Below are positions 1-7,140 of a stretch of 64,000 bases of DNA, piece after piece. Numbering within the stretch: the stretch's first letter is position 1; each line of letters opens with the position of its first letter. Source of the stretch: an uncultured Eubacteriales bacterium (GTDB lineage Bacteria; Bacillota; Clostridia; Oscillospirales; CAG-272); the NCBI GenBank assembly GCA_934503195.1, contig CAKSVM010000006.1:1927-65926 (forward strand). The letters are read 5' to 3'. Position numbers and translations under genes: made by a program. Below the pieces are notes generated by a model that saw nothing but the letters and a program-made list of their open reading frames with translations, searched no databases and was not told the origin of the DNA.

Positions 1-2
1 TC

Positions 3-524
3 GTCGTCGAATCGACTGAAGATCGGCTCAACCTCTACGAAAATCCGTTCGGCGTCCTCACAAATGAGCCGTCATTCCCGCTCCAGAGCTTCATGCTGAA
101 CAACTATCTGAATCTCTCGGCAAAGCCGGCCGAAAACCGCTCCGGACTCGGAATCGAGTCCTACAGTCGCGGAATGGGCGCGATCGGACTTCCCGGCGAC
201 CTCTCGTCGGCGTCAAGATTCGTACGCGCCGCGTTTGTCCGCGCAAACTCGGTGTCAGACGGTTCGGAGGCCGGGAACGTCAGCCAGCTCTTCCACATTC
301 TCGGCTCGGTCGAGCAGCAGCGCGGATGCTGCGAGCTTGAAAACGGCGAACACGAGTACACGATCTACACGTCCTGCGTGAACGCCGACCGCGGGATTTA
401 CTACTACCGCACCTACGACAGCTGCCGTGTCGCCGCCGTTGATATGCACCGCGCAGAGCTTGAATCGGAGGAGCTTGTAAGCTTTCCGATCGTGCGGGAC
501 ACGGAGTTTGAGTTTTTGAACTGA
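3..524 (+). CDS. choloylglycine hydrolase / linear amide C-N hydrolase (Ntn, bile-salt hydrolase-penicillin V acylase family), C-terminal part; 5' end outside window
   Basis: Frame 3 is open from the window edge (..NLYENPFGVLTNEPSFPLQSFMLNNYLNLS..). GLPGDLSSASRFVRAAF and YTSCVNADRGIYYYRTY are typical of the C-terminal half of this family. Confidence 0.8.
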   Translation, partial: VVESTEDRLNLYENPFGVLTNEPSFPLQSFMLNNYLNLSAKPAENRSGLGIESYSRGMGAIGLPGDLSSASRFVRAAFVRANSVSDGSEAGNVSQLFHILGSVEQQRGCCELENGEHEYTIYTSCVNADRGIYYYRTYDSCRVAAVDMHRAELESEELVSFPIVRDTEFEFLN

Positions 525-527
525 CAG

Positions 528-555
528 AAAAAACGACGGGTGACCGTCGTTTTTT
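528..555. terminator. bidirectional rho-independent terminator hairpin (A6-CGACGG-GTGA-CCGTCG-T6)
   Basis: Perfect 12-bp stem including A/T runs, 4 nt after the stop codon at 522-524 and 8 nt from the stop of the convergent gene at 564. Confidence 0.85.
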
Positions 556-563
556 ATTTGTGA

Positions 564-1703
564 TCAGGGTTTGAGGTAGTAGAGTTTTCCGTCCTGCAAG
601 AGAAGAGAGAGATCACTTTCGCAAAATCTCAAATTCTCAACCTCTGACAGGTTCTCGCTCAATCCCCGTCTTTTATCGGATATTTTATCAATTTTCTTCT
701 GAAACTCATTCAAAACCCAATCATCGGTTTTTTTTCCGATTGAAGACAATATTCCAAAACTGCCTATATTCGAGACTATACCAGAGGCTTTGCAAAGCTT
801 CTCATATCGGTGCTTTCTTCCGTACAACTCTGCTTCAAGATTTTTGCCGAAATTTTCGATTTCATCACTATTTTCCGGACATTCAGAAAAATAATCTTCA
901 AGCTCGCCATGTAAATACTCTATCGGAATATCTTTATCATCGAAAACACATTTGAGTTCGCATACTAAACGTAAAATGCAGTAAAAAGCATTTTTATATG
1001 TAATATTGTTTTCAATATAACCGGACTTTTCTTCGAAGGTCTTATACGTGGTAAGCTTTTCATCGCAATATCTGTTTATTCTTATGCAAGCACCAATTAT
1101 ACATTTTTTACAATCATCTTCAATGTTGTAAAGCTTGTCCAGCGTTCTCTTTCTTTCATCATCATGTTCAAATATTTCCGCTCTACGCGCGGATATGCTC
1201 TTAAGATCAATCGAATATTTAATGATTTTAGCCTTTATTTCATCGTCATTTCTTCTGAGTATCTCATCCACCTTCGCGTTAAGCTCTCCGAGCTGATCTG
1301 AGAGCTTCGACATATAATACTGCCCAACGATCATCGACGCCACATTCATAACCGATGAAACCGCGTTCGCGACGCCGAACGCGCTTTCTCCGGCGTTCAC
1401 AAGGTTCGCCTGTCCGATTATCTTACCGCCGCTGTCTTTGATTATTCCTCTGAAAGCGTTTGGCATATTGCCCGATTTCGCGAGTTCCATGCCTTTGACA
1501 AGTCCCCTGACTTCATAAAGCTGTCCCATCTTCCCAGTCGTCGCGGTATTCGTGACAAAATTCATAAGTCCCGGCATAGCGGCTGAAAGACGCGCCAACA
1601 CATCCTTATCAGTGATTTCAATTTTTCTCTCCGGTGGTATATTGTCTTCTGTATGTTCGATTATTTCGATATCAATACTATCGCCGCTTTTGATTTGTTC
1701 CAT
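564..1703 (-). CDS. hypothetical protein, 379 aa, AT-rich orphan (acidic N-terminus, Gly/Ala/Asn-rich hydrophobic segment, Cys-rich helical C-terminal half)
   Basis: Long ORF with its own consensus promoter and RBS (GAAAGGA). Composition is clearly lower in GC than both flanks. I recognise no family motif. Confidence 0.75.
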   Translation of the reverse strand: MEQIKSGDSIDIEIIEHTEDNIPPERKIEITDKDVLARLSAAMPGLMNFVTNTATTGKMGQLYEVRGLVKGMELAKSGNMPNAFRGIIKDSGGKIIGQANLVNAGESAFGVANAVSSVMNVASMIVGQYYMSKLSDQLGELNAKVDEILRRNDDEIKAKIIKYSIDLKSISARRAEIFEHDDERKRTLDKLYNIEDDCKKCIIGACIRINRYCDEKLTTYKTFEEKSGYIENNITYKNAFYCILRLVCELKCVFDDKDIPIEYLHGELEDYFSECPENSDEIENFGKNLEAELYGRKHRYEKLCKASGIVSNIGSFGILSSIGKKTDDWVLNEFQKKIDKISDKRRGLSENLSEVENLRFCESDLSLLLQDGKLYYLKP

Positions 1704-1760
1704 ATTTTTATCCTTTCAAAATATATTATCAGACAAATAATCATCTTGCCCAACAACACG

Positions 1761-1789
1761 ATTATAACACACTTTTCCGTAATTGTCAA
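1761..1789 (-). promoter_or_regulatory. sigma-A promoter of the AT-rich orphan gene
   Basis: Minus strand reads TTGACA (1789-1784) - 17 nt - TATAAT (1766-1761), with a TGT extended -10. Confidence 0.7.
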
Positions 1790-1801
1790 TATATCTGCCG
1801 C

Positions 1802-1828
1802 AAAAAACGACGGTCTCCCGTCGTTTTT
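1802..1828. terminator. terminator hairpin (A6-CGACGG-TCTC-CCGTCG-T5), second copy of the 528-555 hairpin
   Basis: Same 12-bp stem as 528-555. Lies 17 nt downstream of the lipoprotein gene stop (1845, minus strand). Confidence 0.8.
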
Positions 1829-1844
1829 CGCCAATTGTCTTTCC

Positions 1845-3005
1845 TCACTCACTGATCCCGCATTTGCCCGTGCGCGTGTCAATTATAATAAACCTGTCGG
1901 AAACATTGTAATCAAACCCGCTCGCGTAATATTCCTCTGCGACGTCATCCATAAACGAAAGCGCGATATATCCGCCGCGAAATCCCGCGAACGTCCCGCC
2001 GCTGACACTCAGGTCATACCCTATCTCGCAGAAAAGCTCGGTTTTCACGCCATCCGAGCGGTAAACCTTCCCGCCGAACAGATCGTAATACGTCTCGCTG
2101 TTCTTCACGAATCCGCGCGGCTCTGGTTCGACCGACACAAAGAATATTCCGTCGTCCGTGACGATGTAATCAGCGACATTTTCGGAGATTATCGTCTTCC
2201 CGCCGCCCGAAAGCTCAACCCGGCAGAGACGGTTCACGTTCATCCACTCAAGCCGCTCAAGCTGATCCGAACACTCCGAAAACGCCTTTTCGCTGACCCT
2301 TTCGGTGAAATACGCGAATCCGTCATGGTACACGCCGTTCATAAGGCACGGCTCGTCGATCTCAATCGCCCGCTTATTCTTCCCCGCAAGGTCGGTCGTG
2401 AAATACTCATATCCGTCCTCGCCCGGCAAATACCAGTAAACCCTGCCGTCCGCGATCGTCCAGACAGCCGGAACCAGACTCGTGTCGACATTCTCCTCCG
2501 CCGCAAACTCGCCGAGCGGCAGCGAGATCACCTTACGGTTCTTTATGTCGGCGCGGAAGACGCGAAAAACGCTTTTCCCGGACTCATCCCTCTCGGCGGC
2601 ACTGAAAAACACATATCTGTCACAGCTTCCAAGCAGAATAATCGCGTCGTCCATCCGGTCGAGCCGCGCCGCCTCGCCGCTTGTCATGTCATACGCGATA
2701 AGCTCGATCGCACCCGACTGTTCGCCCGTGTTCCGGTCAACCGAAAGATTTCCTCTGACAAAGACGAACTGATTTCCGCACACGATATAATCCTCACAGC
2801 CGTAAAGCGTGCAGTCCACGCCGTGATCACAAAGCGGATCGACGCAGACCGCCGTTCGCTTTCCGGTCGAAAGCATCGTCTTCATCGGAATTCCGTCGGC
2901 TGTCAGACTGAAAACGCAGAGATCCGAAACAGTCGTCCCCTTTTCGTCCGCACAGCCAGTGAAAATGAGCGCGGACAGCGTCAGAATCATAAGCAGTTTT
3001 TTCAT
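1845..3005 (-). CDS. lipoprotein with repeated beta-propeller-like (DUF5050-style) segments
   Basis: Start moved to MKKLLMILTLSALIFTGC (lipobox L-I-F-T-G-C), preceded by GGAGATGAG. Repeated DGxxY/F motifs (DGRVYWY, DDGIFFV, GGKVYRS). The 5' extension to 3098 in the ORF track lacks an RBS. Confidence 0.7.
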   Translation of the reverse strand: MKKLLMILTLSALIFTGCADEKGTTVSDLCVFSLTADGIPMKTMLSTGKRTAVCVDPLCDHGVDCTLYGCEDYIVCGNQFVFVRGNLSVDRNTGEQSGAIELIAYDMTSGEAARLDRMDDAIILLGSCDRYVFFSAAERDESGKSVFRVFRADIKNRKVISLPLGEFAAEENVDTSLVPAVWTIADGRVYWYLPGEDGYEYFTTDLAGKNKRAIEIDEPCLMNGVYHDGFAYFTERVSEKAFSECSDQLERLEWMNVNRLCRVELSGGGKTIISENVADYIVTDDGIFFVSVEPEPRGFVKNSETYYDLFGGKVYRSDGVKTELFCEIGYDLSVSGGTFAGFRGGYIALSFMDDVAEEYYASGFDYNVSDRFIIIDTRTGKCGISE

Positions 3006-3094
3006 TTTCTCATCTCCTTCACCTATAAAGACACTGAAACGGCGCGAAATCTGCCGCTGAAAGCGAAAAACGGCGGAAAATTCTCCACCGTTCT

Positions 3095-4150
3095 TCACTG
3101 TTCATCAAAGCTTAACGCCACATCGTCCTTCCAGAGCCTTCCGGCCGTCTCGGTGACAAGCTCCTTCTCACGACGCGTAAGTGTCCTGAATGGTGTGACC
3201 AAAAGCTTTCCGCCCTTCTTTTTCCATTTGCCGACCACCTCGCCGCCGATCATCAGCGCGGGCATCACGATTCCGGCGAGGTTGAAAATCGCTCTCAAAT
3301 CTTCCCCGCGCAAAAACAAACTTTCCTTCTTCTCGTGAGCCAGCAGAAGCTGGTCAAATCCCGCGAGGAACAGACATTCCGGAATTTCCTTGTCATATGA
3401 CTGACCGTTTTCGATATAATAATACGTCTTGCCTTCGCATTCTACCGCCGTGACAGGCAGCTCTGAGAGCCATTCTTTTACCTGCGCGGCGGTCGCGTGG
3501 AAGTAATACATCGCGTCGTGTATCGTCGACGGTCCCATGTTTGTGAAATACCGCCGGGCGATTTCAAGGTTCGCCTCCCGCTCGGGGATCGGCATGAATG
3601 GGGGCGAGAGACAGAACGCCTTCTTTTCCTGAACGACATAGTTCATGAAGCCGCGCTCGCAGAGCTCACGGATTCCGCCGCCCCACTGTTCGAACATACA
3701 GCCCTCCTCGGTCGCGGTCATGCCGTTCTGTCTGCAAACTATCTTGAGTTCCTCTCTCGTAAGCTCTGATTCTCTGAGTGCCGCTAAAATCACCTCCGTG
3801 AGATATGCCTGCCTCTCGGGCGAGAGCACCCACTTGTCGCGCTGATTCCAGTATGTGTATCCGCGCCAGTTCTTGCTCAGGTAATCCTTTCCGTTGTTGC
3901 AGTGAATGAACAGTGGTAGATCATCCTGTGCGAACACGTGGACTGTTCCGCGGACAGTCCAGTTCTTCACAATTCCTTCCCGGATCGTTTTCTCGTCAAA
4001 GTCCTTGCACCGTATTCTCAGCGAATGCAGAGCGTTTGACATGAACTGTGCCTGAACTCCGCATAGATCATGGAGCACCGTCAGCTTGTCCGCCGGGGTC
4101 AGCAGGTGCTGGTTTGCCATCTGGCGGACTTTTATCTCTTCAATTGTCAT
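3095..4150 (-). CDS. winged-helix DNA glycosylase of the YcaQ/AlkZ (HTH_42, interstrand-crosslink repair) family
   Basis: 351 aa. N-terminal MANQHLL..LHDLCGVQAQ and overall length/pattern match the DUF1006/HTH_42 family. RBS GGGAGGTGAG. Confidence 0.65.
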   Translation of the reverse strand: MTIEEIKVRQMANQHLLTPADKLTVLHDLCGVQAQFMSNALHSLRIRCKDFDEKTIREGIVKNWTVRGTVHVFAQDDLPLFIHCNNGKDYLSKNWRGYTYWNQRDKWVLSPERQAYLTEVILAALRESELTREELKIVCRQNGMTATEEGCMFEQWGGGIRELCERGFMNYVVQEKKAFCLSPPFMPIPEREANLEIARRYFTNMGPSTIHDAMYYFHATAAQVKEWLSELPVTAVECEGKTYYYIENGQSYDKEIPECLFLAGFDQLLLAHEKKESLFLRGEDLRAIFNLAGIVMPALMIGGEVVGKWKKKGGKLLVTPFRTLTRREKELVTETAGRLWKDDVALSFDEQ

Positions 4151-4172
4151 CGTAAACTCACCTCCCGCGGTT

Positions 4173-4210
4173 AAAAAAGGCGGTATCCGACCGCGGATAT
4201 CGCCTTTTTT
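4173..4210 (-). terminator. asnS terminator
   Basis: A6-GGCGGTATCCG..CGGATATCGCC-T6 hairpin 10 nt downstream of the asnS stop. T-run on the minus strand. Confidence 0.8.
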
Positions 4211-4219
4211 GCTGTTTTA

Positions 4220-5614
4220 TCAGAACTCTGCGTTGCCGACCGTTCTCGGGAAGGGCAGGACATCGCGGATGTTCGAAACCCCGGTGATGTACATGATGAT
4301 GCGCTCGAAGCCGAGACCGTAGCCCGCGTGCTTCGTTCCGCCGTACTTGCGGAGGTTGAGATACCACCAGTAATCCTCCTCGGAGAGCTTGAGCTCCTTC
4401 ATGCGCTCACGGAGAACGTCAAGACGCTCCTCACGCTGTGAGCCGCCGATGATCTCGCCGACACCCGGAACGAGAAGATCCATCGCCGCGACGGTCTTTC
4501 CGTCGTCGTTGAGGCGCATATAGAAGGCCTTGATCTCCTTCGGATAGTTGATGAGGAAGACCGGCTTCTTGTATACCTGCTCGGTGAGGTAGCGCTCGTG
4601 CTCGGTCTGGAGGTCGACGCCCCAGTAAACCGGATACGAGAACTGCTGTCCGGACTTTAAGAGAATGTCAATAGCGTCGGTGTAATCAACCTTGACGTAA
4701 TCGGCGTCGCGGAGCGCGGTCAAACGGTCAAGGAGAGTCTTGTCCACAAACTTGTTGAAGAACTCGATCTCCTGCTTGCAGTTTTCGAGAACGTGGTTTA
4801 TGATGAACTTGATCATATCCCACGCGAGCTGCATATCGTCATTGAGGTCGGCGAACGCGATCTCAGGCTCAATCATCCAGAACTCGGCGGCGTGACGCGC
4901 GGTGTTCGAGTTTTCGGCACGGAAGGTCGGACCGAAGGTATAGACATTTCCGAAGGCCATCGCGAAGGTCTCGGCCTCAAGCTGTCCGGAAACGGTGAGG
5001 TTGGTTGACTTGCCGAAGAAATCCTTCGAGAAATCGACCTTGCCGTCCTCGTTTTTCGGGAGATTGTCAAGATCAAGCGTGGTGATGCGGAACATCTCGC
5101 CCGCGCCCTCGCAGTCGGAGCCGGTCACGATCGGAGTGTGGACATAGACAAAGCCTCTCTGATGGAAGAAGCTGTGGATCGCGTACGCGACCTCGGAGCG
5201 GACTCTGAACACCGCCGAGAAGAGATTCGTTCTAGGGCGGAGATATGCCTGCTCGCGGAGAAACTCGACGCTGTGACGCTTCGGCTGGAGCGGGTAATCG
5301 GGAGTCGAGGTTCCCTCGACCTTTATCTCGGTCGCCTTCAGTTCAAAGGGCTGCTTCGCGCCGGGAGTGAGCGTGAGAACTCCGGTGACGACCAGAGCCG
5401 CGCCGACGTTCTGAGAGGCGATCTCGTCGTAATTATCTATCTTGTCGCGCTCGAAAACGACCTGAATATTCGAGTGGCAGGAGCCGTCGTTGAGGTCGAT
5501 GAAGCCGAAGGCCTTTGAGTCGCGGAGATTTCTGACCCAGCCGCCAAGCGTGACAGTCTTGCCGCCAAAGGTTTCGCTGTCGTCGTAAATATGCTTTACA
5601 AGTTCTCTTTCCAT
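4220..5614 (-). CDS. asnS: asparagine--tRNA ligase
   Basis: 464 aa. N-terminal OB-fold segment [22 protein letters not shown]. Class II motif [24 protein letters not shown]. Confidence 0.95.
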
Positions 5615-5647
5615 AGTATCTTCCCCTGAAAAAATATTTGATATTAT

Positions 5648-5676
5648 AGTATATCACACAAATCGCGGTTTGTCAA
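5648..5676 (-). promoter_or_regulatory. asnS promoter
   Basis: Minus strand TTGACA - 17 nt - TATACT, about 35 nt upstream of the ATG. This leaves no room for a T-box leader. Confidence 0.6.
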
Positions 5677-5874
5677 GCCCATATCCGATTTTTCCGCAGG
5701 AATCCGGAAATTTACATTACGAAAGCTGTGTTAATTGTCATATATCACAATTGACAGCAATCGTGGAGTCTTATTCTGGGCATCGCAGACTCCGTCCGCG
5801 GAACATGGAACCTTCTCTGCCTCTGCGTAAAGGAATTCAGCGAGGAAAATTAACAATATTATCGAATCTGCCGA

Positions 5875-5903
5875 TTGACAGAGAGTTTCCGACGTGATAT
5901 AAT
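5875..5903 (+). promoter_or_regulatory. glnA promoter
   Basis: TTGACA (5875-5880) - 17 nt - TATAAT (5898-5903) with TGA extended -10. RBS AAGGAG at 5921. Confidence 0.7.
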
Positions 5904-5937
5904 ATTATTGAATCCACATTAAGGAGATTACGGTAAT

Positions 5938-7140
5938 ATGAAATATACCGCCGACGAAATCTTCGACTTCATCGAGCAGGAAGACGTGAAGTTCATAAGA
6001 CTCGCCTTCTGCGACCCCAAGGGAAGACAGAAAAACGTATCAATAATGCCCTCGGAATTAAAACGCGCTTTCGAGGACGGAATTTCCTTCGACGCCTCGG
6101 CGATTCACGGTTTCGCGGGCGAGGAGCGGAGCGATCTCATGCTCTTCCCCGTCCCCTCGACGCTGAACGTCCTTTCGTGGCGTCCGTCGCACGGCAAGGT
6201 CGTGCGGATGTTCTGCGACATCCGCTATCCTGACGGAAGCCCCTTTGAGTGCGACAGCAGATATATCCTGAAAAACGCTATCGACGCGGCCAAGAAAAAG
6301 GGAATCTCGGTCAGCTTCGGCTCGGAATTCGAGTTCTACCTCTTCAAGACCGACGAGGACGGATACCCGAACATGATCCCCTTCGACCGCGGCGGATACA
6401 TGGACGTCGCGCCCGAGGACAAGGGAGAGAATATCCGGCGCGAGATCTGCTTAACTCTCATCGATATGGGAATCCGCCCCGAGTCCTCTCACCATGAGGA
6501 GGGACCCGGACAGAACGAGATCGACTTCAGATTCAGCGACGCGATGACCGCCGCCGACAACGCCGTCAACTTCGTGACCGTTGTCAAGGCCGCCGCGATG
6601 CACAACGGACTCTACGCCGATTTTTCGCCGAAGCCGCTTGAGGGCGAGAGTGGAAACGGTATGCACGTCAACATTTCGCTGAAATCGACCGACGGCATTG
6701 ACCACACGCCCGAATTCATGGCCGGAATCATGGCGCACATCCGCGAGATGACGGCCTTCTTCAACAACCGTCCCGAATCTTATCTCAGACTCGGCGAGAT
6801 GAAGGCTCCGAAATATGTCACGTGGTCGCCCGAAAACCGCTCGCAGCTCATAAGAATCCCCGCCGCGAAGGGCGAATATCAGCGCGTCGAGCTTCGCTCG
6901 CCCGACCCCTGCGCAAACCCCTACATTGCCTACGCGATGCTGATTTACGCCGGACTTGACGGAATTGAGAAGAAGCTGAAATGTCCCGATCCGGTCAACC
7001 TCAATCTCTACACGGCCGACAGCTCGGTGACCGACAAGCTCGAAAAGCTACCGTCGTCGCTCGACGAGGCGATGGAACTCGCGGGAACCAGTGAGTTCAT
7101 AAAGTCGATCCTCCCCGAAAAACTCATAAAGTCGCTCTGA
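5938..7140 (+). CDS. glnA: glutamine synthetase (short type I-like, 400 aa)
   Basis: N-terminal beta-grasp (VKFIRLAFCDPKGRQKNV) and catalytic region (GSEFEFYLF, HHEEGPGQNEIDF, NGMHVNISL, RVELRSPD). Confidence 0.9.
   Translation: MKYTADEIFDFIEQEDVKFIRLAFCDPKGRQKNVSIMPSELKRAFEDGISFDASAIHGFAGEERSDLMLFPVPSTLNVLSWRPSHGKVVRMFCDIRYPDGSPFECDSRYILKNAIDAAKKKGISVSFGSEFEFYLFKTDEDGYPNMIPFDRGGYMDVAPEDKGENIRREICLTLIDMGIRPESSHHEEGPGQNEIDFRFSDAMTAADNAVNFVTVVKAAAMHNGLYADFSPKPLEGESGNGMHVNISLKSTDGIDHTPEFMAGIMAHIREMTAFFNNRPESYLRLGEMKAPKYVTWSPENRSQLIRIPAAKGEYQRVELRSPDPCANPYIAYAMLIYAGLDGIEKKLKCPDPVNLNLYTADSSVTDKLEKLPSSLDEAMELAGTSEFIKSILPEKLIKSL

Follow-up and report, generated by a model that had tools for sequence, protein, structure and literature searches.

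The islet and the systems it resembles

The morons of temperate phages are defined by a promoter and a factor-independent terminator of their own, a deviating GC content and an accessory gene of benefit to the host (PMC3594210). Here, we describe an islet with similar traits in a stretch of 64,000 nucleotides (hereafter the window) from an uncultured Eubacteriales bacterium (assembly GCA_934503195.1, contig CAKSVM010000006.1, positions 1,927 to 65,926). The islet is located at positions 528 to 1828 of the window and contains one gene, for a protein of 379 amino acids, between two hairpins with identical stems. Like a moron, it has a predicted promoter and terminator of its own, a deviating GC content and a single gene of accessory type, and relatives of the islet protein are encoded by prophages and viral contigs. 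Unlike a moron, it is situated in a housekeeping part of the chromosome and has two copies of one terminator, which are not part of the moron definition, and its flanking genes were not adjacent in any related genome found. We consider it fairly probable that the islet is a horizontally acquired, moron-like and terminator-insulated candidate defence gene at a recombination-prone housekeeping locus, with a right hairpin that is probably a local inverted copy. It would essentially be an unusually tidy yet ordinary accessory-gene islet and not a new kind of mobile element. The features of the locus are as follows, with related loci referred to by their L numbers, GC3 for the GC content at third codon positions and ORF for open reading frame.

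3..524, plus strand: 3' part of a choloylglycine-hydrolase-family gene (bsh-like, linear amide C-N hydrolase); ORF with a match to Pfam CBAH (E=3.2e-47) and a TGA stop at 522-524
528-555: left hairpin, A6-CGACGG-GTGA-CCGTCG-T6, or AAAAAACGACGG-GTGA-CCGTCGTTTTTT
564..1703, minus strand: islet gene; ORF of 379 amino acids, the sole gene between the hairpins
564..604, minus strand: conserved 3' end of the islet gene, last 13 codons (…QDGKLYYLKP and stop), 94-98% identical to L003/L004
605..1257, minus strand: allele-specific segment of the islet gene, about 218 codons (residues ~149-366), GC 0.348, GC3 0.34
1258..1703, minus strand: conserved N-terminal 148 codons of the islet gene, with VGQYYM at residues 126-131, GC 0.475
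1705..1716, minus strand: ribosome-binding site AAAGGA (1716-1711), followed by a run of five A (1709-1705) shortly ahead of the ATG
1761..1789, minus strand: consensus sigma-70 promoter of the islet gene, TTGACA (1789-1784), 17-nt spacer with TG, TATAAT (1766-1761); 12 of 12 consensus positions, extended -10
1802-1828: right hairpin, A6-CGACGG-TCTC-CCGTCG-T5, or AAAAAACGACGG-TCTC-CCGTCGTTTTT; inverted copy of the left hairpin
1845..3008, minus strand: lipoprotein gene; ORF with signal peptide MKKLLMILTLSALIFTGC and weak similarity to DUF5050 (Pfam, NCBIfam)
3066-3098: AlkZ terminator, GAAAAACGGCGG-AAAATTCT-CCACCGTTCTTC; degenerate in the window, with a stem mismatch and a broken T-tract

In its anatomy, its stability on two strands and the placement of its left hairpin near two stop codons, the islet also resembles the bidirectional terminators between convergent genes, but it has a second, inverted copy 1.27 kb away that is situated between co-directional genes. 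Another likeness is to the single-gene and abortive infection (Abi) systems with swappable domains in defence islands. Members of the islet protein family are found beside McrBC, type I restriction-modification (R-M), AbiLi/AbiLii, PDC-S01 and PDC-S61, and the islet gene has one domain that is replaced between strains, conserved anchors and an AT-rich composition. However, the family is outside the PADLOC catalogue, and the islet copy has no membrane anchor.

The Xer-dependent pdif modules of Acinetobacter plasmids and the integrative mobile elements exploiting Xer (IMEX) are small recombinase-less modules with 28-bp palindrome-like inverted sites. A Xer/dif site of 28 bp is composed of 11-bp XerC and XerD arms and a 6-bp core, and several modules occur per replicon. 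The islet is likewise a small gene module without a recombinase, bounded by inverted palindrome-like sites. In comparison with these modules, the islet differs in that its hairpins have a 12-4-12 geometry with A/T tracts, that it is a single module and that its sites do not follow the gene, and a role as terminator accounts fully for its hairpin sequence. The cassettes of integrons typically lack a promoter and have one attC site with R and L boxes, extrahelical bases and a GTTRRRY core. They share with the islet a single gene beside a palindrome-type site and the absence of a recombinase inside, whereas the islet has a strong predicted promoter, perfect stems and no GTTRRRY motif, and no integrase was identified among the large ORFs in the first 24 kb of the window, which is the scope of all our statements on recombination enzymes.

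The islet has terminal inverted repeats (27 nt, 96%), as do transposons with such ends and miniature inverted-repeat transposable elements, but neither target-site duplications nor multiple copies or travelling ends. The minimal mobile elements of Neisseria are strain-variable cassettes that are swapped via flanking homology. Here, the likeness lies in alleles between conserved flanks, homologous recombination and a lack of mobility genes, while in the islet the exchange affects an inner part of one gene. No relevant match came from a search of the literature for duplicated terminators that flank acquired genes.

The paired hairpins

Both hairpins are composed of an A-tract, a 6-bp G+C core, a 4-nt loop and a T-tract, and form perfect 12-bp stems (12-4-12). 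The earlier note on this sequence had described identical stems with loops that differ by one base if one copy is inverted, and the two hairpins indeed match at 26 of 27 positions in the inverted reading, reported by a repeat finder as a 27-nt inverted repeat with 96% complementarity. Stems and tracts match perfectly over the 23 positions common to both copies. The loops have none of their four bases in common when read directly and differ at one of the four when read inverted. The outer flanks, ...ACTGACAG and CGCCAATT..., do not have a common direct repeat that would indicate a target-site duplication around the pair.

The stem was also rightly said to be absent from the other terminators of the window. 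The pattern AACGACGGN4CCGTCGTT, with up to two mismatches allowed, was found at just two sites in the 64 kb, namely the bracketing hairpins, as compared to an expected number of 0.07, and none of 100 shuffled sequences contained two or more matches. Outside the window, the hairpin core AAAACGACGG-N4-CCGTCGTTTT was recovered from 45 loci in 596 Gbp of representative genomes and from 42 loci in a metagenome collection, always with one copy per locus. None of these 87 loci from two public collections is syntenic with the window, and their hosts are unrelated (Bacillus, Metabacillus, metagenome-assembled genomes of Clostridia, Bacteroidota, Proteobacteria). The loops of the outside copies vary widely, and the GTGA loop is present on an identical hairpin in two unrelated loci, L038 and L120. 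The stem is thus not a common terminator sequence genome-wide. The hairpin is a terminator design that has been reached repeatedly by evolution, yet rarely, and is not a multicopy element of the repetitive extragenic palindromic (REP) type. From the 45 genomic loci, we calculated a density of about 7.6e-11 per base, which gives a probability of about 3e-7 for a second copy by chance within 2 kb on either side, and of about 1e-4 or less even with a generous enrichment for such genomes. Because a second nearby copy is so improbable, we take the two hairpins to be paralogous and related by descent rather than by chance.

As putative terminators, the two hairpins show the expected sequence traits: in either direction, a G+C stem-loop precedes a U-tract, and they are located just past stop codons. 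The left hairpin starts 4 nt past the stop of the bsh-like gene and is 8 nt past the stop of the islet gene, while the right hairpin lies 16 nt past the stop of the lipoprotein gene and immediately precedes the islet promoter. A terminator scan of 528-555 returned 12 pairs (5 G-C), a 4-nt loop and a T-rich tail, and in the right hairpin the minus-strand tail is T6 and the plus-strand tail T5. The predicted folding energies of the left hairpin are -20.6 kcal/mol on the plus strand and -17.1 kcal/mol on the minus strand (z -4.5 and -5.3), and that of the right hairpin on the minus strand is -23.1 kcal/mol (z -6.6), with the values for all four strands in the range of -17 to -23 kcal/mol (z -4.5 to -6.6). 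The single stem change known among four strains, an A to G in the right hairpin of L003, leaves a G.U pair on the sense strand of the lipoprotein gene and would fit selection on RNA structure. We infer that both hairpins are bidirectional intrinsic terminators; the left one is predicted to be common to the bsh-like gene on the plus strand and the islet gene on the minus strand, and the right one to serve as the terminator of the lipoprotein gene and as an insulator of the islet promoter. Rfam gave no match in 1-3200 at E<=1, nor in the whole window at the gathering score.

Other local terminators are built on a similar theme, with A5-CGGCGG at 3066-3098 and AAAAAAGGCGG at 4172. The former, the AlkZ terminator, is intact in L003 and L054 (…CCGCCGTTTTTT), and its theme A5-CG[G/A]CGG is as in the islet hairpins. 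It was considered as a third copy of the hairpin and rejected, being ancestral at its position and present in a sister species.

The islet gene and its protein family

The earlier note had described the islet as markedly AT-richer than both flanks. This is correct, with a GC content of 0.35-0.48 in the gene as compared to 0.54-0.58 in the surroundings, but the AT-richness is not uniform. The GC content is 0.348 in 605-1257, 0.475 in 1258-1703 and 0.306 in 1704-1801, against 0.584 in 1-527, 0.542 in 1829-5000 and 0.554 in the whole window, and the most AT-rich coding part is thus internal to the gene. The AT-richness is real and not merely an amino-acid effect, since GC3 is 0.43 in the islet gene (0.34 in its variable part) as compared to 0.75 in the bsh-like gene and 0.68 in both the lipoprotein gene and AlkZ. 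The islet gene is compositionally foreign, and the codon-usage comparison that had been proposed as a check agrees with the original suspicion.

The sharpest breakpoints, in composition as well as in homology, are inside the gene and away from the hairpins. In BLAST alignments, 84-604 and 1258-2571 are about 94-96% identical to L003, L004 and L054, with breakpoints at 604/605 and 1257/1258. The sliding identity of the intervening segment 605-1257 is 35-67% to L003/L004(/L054) and 97-100% to L001/L002, whereas the 60-nt blocks of 1259-1737 are 95-100% identical to L003/L004/L054 and 93-98% to L001/L002, the comparison with the latter two being limited to 552-1769 of the window. The alternative allele segment, of L003 type, is likewise AT-rich, with a GC content of 0.38. 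The C-terminal part of about 218 codons is thus an exchangeable module that was recently common to two variants of the locus.

The one gene between the hairpins had also been credited with a perfect promoter, and its -35 and -10 boxes do agree with the sigma-70 consensus throughout. The promoter is conserved in L003, L004 and L054, while in L001 and L125 the -10 box is kept inside a coding sequence and the -35 box is missing. The sequence 1704-1769, which is now the 5' untranslated region with the -10 box, encodes a hydrophobic stretch similar to a transmembrane (TM) segment (…VIIVLLGKMIICLIIYFERIK), out of frame with the gene in the window. In L125 and L001, the same stretch forms the C-terminal, TM-like tail of a zinc-ribbon ORF, and in L003, L004 and L054 an A6 run brings it into frame with the islet gene. 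The islet gene thus looks truncated or start-shifted, and its present promoter may have been assembled on former coding sequence. The homopolymer between the ribosome-binding site and the ATG has five A on the coding strand in the window, L001, L002 and L125, and six in L003, L004 and L054; it could be a slippage-prone tract or plain strain variation. A derivation of the islet promoter from the promoter of the L125 zinc-ribbon gene, with which it has TTGACAATTnCG in common, was also considered and rejected as marginal, with 9 of 500 shuffles as good and the -35 consensus as a confounder.

The islet protein is a divergent member of an uncharacterised family with the motif VGQYYM, most members of which align with E-values of 1e-27 to 1e-14 over 56-98% of the query. 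Residues V126-Y130 are invariant and M131 nearly so, and the C-terminal DGKLYYL is conserved family-wide. At E<=1e-3 the family contains at least 1,490 clusters, and at the stricter cutoff of E<=1e-30 it contains 364. No match to the islet protein was obtained among the families of Pfam, PADLOC, NCBIfam or PHROG; in PADLOC 2.0, no family was retrieved at E<=1, and only the genomic neighbours of the homologues gave matches. Among 37 homologues, the only Pfam domain was that of one Mrr_N fusion. A profile search of the PDB did not identify any solved relative. The AlphaFold model, with a predicted local distance difference test (pLDDT) score of 62, is a long bundle of helices capped at either end by small beta elements, for which Foldseek retrieved only generic helical bundles from the PDB (E>=0.04), and a single match in BFVD, to an uncharacterised siphovirus protein. 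Family members usually have an N-terminal TM helix and basic residues about 30-50 residues ahead of the first conserved block. The islet protein begins just about 26 residues ahead of this block and is without the N-terminal TM helix. The homologues were found in the following contexts:

XRE regulator, NACHT protein, methylase and PIN domain
UvrD/GajB-like helicase, PDC-S61 and type I R-M
PDC-S01 and AbiLi/AbiLii
a region resembling an integrative and conjugative element, with FtsK/WYL/NikA
McrBC, Macro and WYL proteins
insertion sequence (IS) fragments beside a phage integrase
15 IMG/VR viral contigs that encode relatives

The family consists mostly of membrane-anchored helical proteins of defence islands, integrative elements and prophages, and because of these locations, the islet protein is a candidate anti-phage or abortive-infection effector. 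By guilt by association, we give roughly even odds to a role in defence against phages or mobile elements, in which the variable C-terminal region would confer specificity. In some members of the family (P0283, P0025, P0276), the protein is joined to a domain of another kind, namely microbial PARG (ADP-ribose glycohydrolase), the winged-helix domain Mrr_N or DUF1643, and in L066 a gene for a Macro domain is located directly upstream of the family member. These observations hint at a link with ADP-ribosylation biology.

Related loci and the origin of the islet

As noted before, the outer genes are convergent, with the bsh-like gene ending at 524 on the plus strand and the lipoprotein gene at 1845 on the minus strand. 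The neighbourhood is housekeeping chromosome, with genes for an aminoacyl-tRNA synthetase, glutamine synthetase, a PurF-like protein, PFL and similar proteins, and the islet is thus not located in a phage or prophage genome. The large ORFs scanned in the first 24 kb do not include a recombinase or integrase, in agreement with the earlier note. An AT-rich leader of 323 nt (5615-5937, GC about 0.40) separates a class II aminoacyl-tRNA synthetase gene (4220-5614, minus strand) from the glutamine synthetase gene (5938-7140, plus strand); it had no match in Rfam, not even to a T-box.

All species-level relatives carry the islet gene. Three of them (L003, L004 and L054; 94-96% identical) have the same arrangement as the window with both hairpins, and the orientation is identical in all four two-hairpin strains, with no inversion polymorphism. 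The left hairpin was recovered from the window, L003, L004 and L125. It is identical and at the same place in L003 and L125, and in L004 it deviates in the outer A/T tracts, with stem and loop identical. The right hairpin was found in L003 (as a variant), L004 and L054 and missing in L125, L001 and L002; it occurs only where the lipoprotein gene abuts and is, as far as these loci indicate, specific to that variant. The 5' half of the lipoprotein gene has been lost by different deletions in L003 (1465-2191) and L054 (3666-4364), the breakpoints of which (window ~2470-2560) cluster with the end of an inverted fragment in L125. The lipoprotein gene seems to be dispensable and the region prone to breakage.

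The other arrangement is best seen in L125 (ENA ERZ15610125 NODE_20616, region 1-2600 compared), which is 96% identical to 1-1769 of the window without interruption. It has the bsh-like gene, an identical left hairpin and the same islet allele with a premature TAG; upstream of 1769, a zinc-ribbon gene of 95 amino acids is found where the window has its -35 box, right hairpin and intact lipoprotein gene. The gene order in L125 is zinc-ribbon gene (with its own promoter, TTGACA-17-TAAAAT), islet gene, left hairpin, bsh-like gene and MarR gene. The islet gene and one hairpin thus exist independently of the lipoprotein junction. L001 and L002 have an L125-like arrangement with an IS (DDE_Tnp_1/DUF772) inserted in the A-tract of the hairpin, and homology of the window to these two loci ends at 552, in the T-tract of the left hairpin, and at 1769, which is 33 nt short of the right hairpin. 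An 8-nt match to their context, GCGGCAGA, directly abuts the right hairpin. In L001 (1434-3460) and L002, the DDE_Tnp_1/DUF772 transposase gene starts about 85 nt past the islet stop, divergence begins inside the A-tract and the HTH_29/HTH_32 ORFs of a second IS come next; the terminator may be an IS target in these two loci. Three independent contigs, those of L125, L001 and L002, all break off within about 120 nt on the upstream side of the zinc-ribbon gene, and the likely cause is a repeat or strain heterogeneity at this point. Positions 7-38 of L125 resemble the middle of the lipoprotein gene (window 2482-2514) at 27 of 32 nt (GEFTAEKKVT versus GEFAAEENVDT; score 37, shuffle maximum 28) in the opposite orientation relative to the islet gene, a hint that the junction involves an inversion or a paralogous fragment.

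In a sister species (L050-L053), with about 83% nucleotide identity over AlkZ and the lipoprotein gene, the stop codon of the latter is followed by a different terminator-like sequence, a perfect promoter and a co-directional gene for a secreted protein, and the locus contains neither the bsh-like gene nor the islet. The intergenic regions of this species (L050 2646-2883, L051 2484-2737) have a perfect TTGACA-17-TATAAT with TG and then a long structured leader, and the locus seems to be characterised by consensus promoters that directly follow the lipoprotein-gene terminator. No significant homology was detected between these regions and that of the right hairpin (209 of 500 shuffles equal for L051 and 67 of 500 for L050). 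An empty site, with the bsh-like gene, one hairpin and the lipoprotein gene, had been proposed as a comparison, and none was found among the hairpin loci from genomes and metagenomes or the contigs with homologues of the lipoprotein or bsh-like genes. The lipoprotein homologues came only from the sister species, with a different downstream gene, a lipoprotein search of the Joint Genome Institute (JGI) metagenomes gave no match, and the best homologue of the bsh fragment, at 65% identity, was uninformative about an empty site.

These arrangements bear directly on the proposal of the earlier note, in which a foreign cassette of promoter and gene was inserted into a single bidirectional terminator shared by the bsh-like and lipoprotein genes and duplicated it as a long target-site duplication. 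The hairpins do bracket the gene, homology to L001/L002 stops near them with the 8-nt match abutting the right one, and no recombinase is at hand, but we regard this scenario as unlikely. A target-site duplication would be direct, and in that reading all four loop bases differ while stems and tracts are identical; the loops instead fit an inverted copy. L125 has the gene, one hairpin and the bsh-like gene without the lipoprotein gene or a second hairpin, the lipoprotein gene of the sister species is followed by another gene than bsh, the collections searched did not contain any empty site, and the sharpest breakpoints (604/605 and 1257/1258) are internal to the gene.

The inverted repeat that matches exactly at both ends, the 12-4-12 geometry, which recalls site I of a resolvase res site and 28-bp dif-type sites, the lack of a recombinase in cis and the occurrence of the islet gene in a second context would also be compatible with a non-autonomous mobile module of 1.3 kb, the 27-bp terminal repeats of which serve as sites for a recombinase or transposase in trans (Xer pdif, resolvase/invertase or IS200/IS605-type). 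This is highly doubtful, since the repeats are not surrounded by a target-site duplication, the window contains one pair only, the 87 outside copies are single and in unrelated contexts, and the absence of the right hairpin from L125 and L001/L002 shows that the hairpins are not carried along with the gene. Nor was the same bracketed cassette found elsewhere, a check that the earlier note had proposed: the hairpin was never paired in the 87 loci, the distant members of the family are not bracketed by paired hairpins, and the orientation does not vary among the four two-hairpin strains. That two independent terminators converged, by chance or under shared selective constraints, is extremely unlikely. 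The same hairpin has arisen in L038 and L120, including the GTGA loop, and the local terminators are built on a similar theme, but the exact 20 specified bases were found just 45 times in 596 Gbp, with the low probability of a chance second copy given above, and no other terminator of the window is within two mismatches.

In the reading that we favour, of an acquired gene with a locally copied hairpin, the sigma-70 promoter would drive the islet gene and transcription would end at the left hairpin, which would also terminate the convergent bsh-like gene. The right hairpin would terminate the upstream lipoprotein gene and shield the islet promoter from read-through. The left hairpin would be the older, shared terminator, because it is found in every bsh-linked variant. 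The right hairpin would most likely have been copied locally, in inverted orientation, at the junction where a rearrangement joined the 3' end of the lipoprotein gene to the islet gene and presumably removed or replaced the zinc-ribbon gene seen upstream in other strains; template switching or templated filler synthesis during repair are candidates for the copying. The C-terminal two-thirds of the protein would represent a specificity or variable module, exchanged between strains by homologous recombination between two anchors, one of which consists of the conserved N-terminal third and the promoter and the other of the last 13 codons, the left hairpin and bsh. Such an exchange would need no dedicated recombinase.

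Several points weigh against this interpretation. The activities of the promoter and the terminators of the islet are predictions. No intermediate state in the copying of the right hairpin was found, and three contigs end upstream of the zinc-ribbon gene. To our knowledge, there is no established mechanism in bacteria for an inverted 28-bp copy 1.27 kb away. PADLOC has no model for the family, and the structure model is of mediocre quality and did not yield an informative fold match. Finally, the islet gene may be decaying rather than functional, because its protein is without the TM helix and the L125 copy has a premature stop.

A bolder idea, to which we assign a very low probability, is that palindromes of the 12-4-12 type are also substrates for recombination or repair at the DNA level, by a resolvase, an invertase or a Xer-like enzyme in trans or by hairpin-templated synthesis at the junction. 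This would amount to a "terminator capture" of defence cassettes with promoter and gene, in which the terminator is copied in inverted orientation, and if true, it would be a recombinase-free route to acquire and insulate foreign genes.

The inverted copy of the terminator is the one unexplained curiosity in a locus with features of otherwise known kinds. If the copying of the hairpin is mechanistic and not incidental, it bears on how new genes are integrated and insulated without the machinery of mobile elements. The locus shows, as a clean natural case, how a foreign gene can be kept in a core region as an insulated unit, with a predicted promoter and a predicted terminator on each side. Its plasticity is illustrated by a handful of metagenomic strains, in which a domain of the gene was swapped, a premature stop arose, an IS was inserted, the upstream partner is a different one or a neighbouring gene has decayed. 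Of more use, as a by-product, is the protein family, which, with its at least 1,490 clusters and no Pfam or PADLOC model, is a reasonable candidate for defence-system screens.

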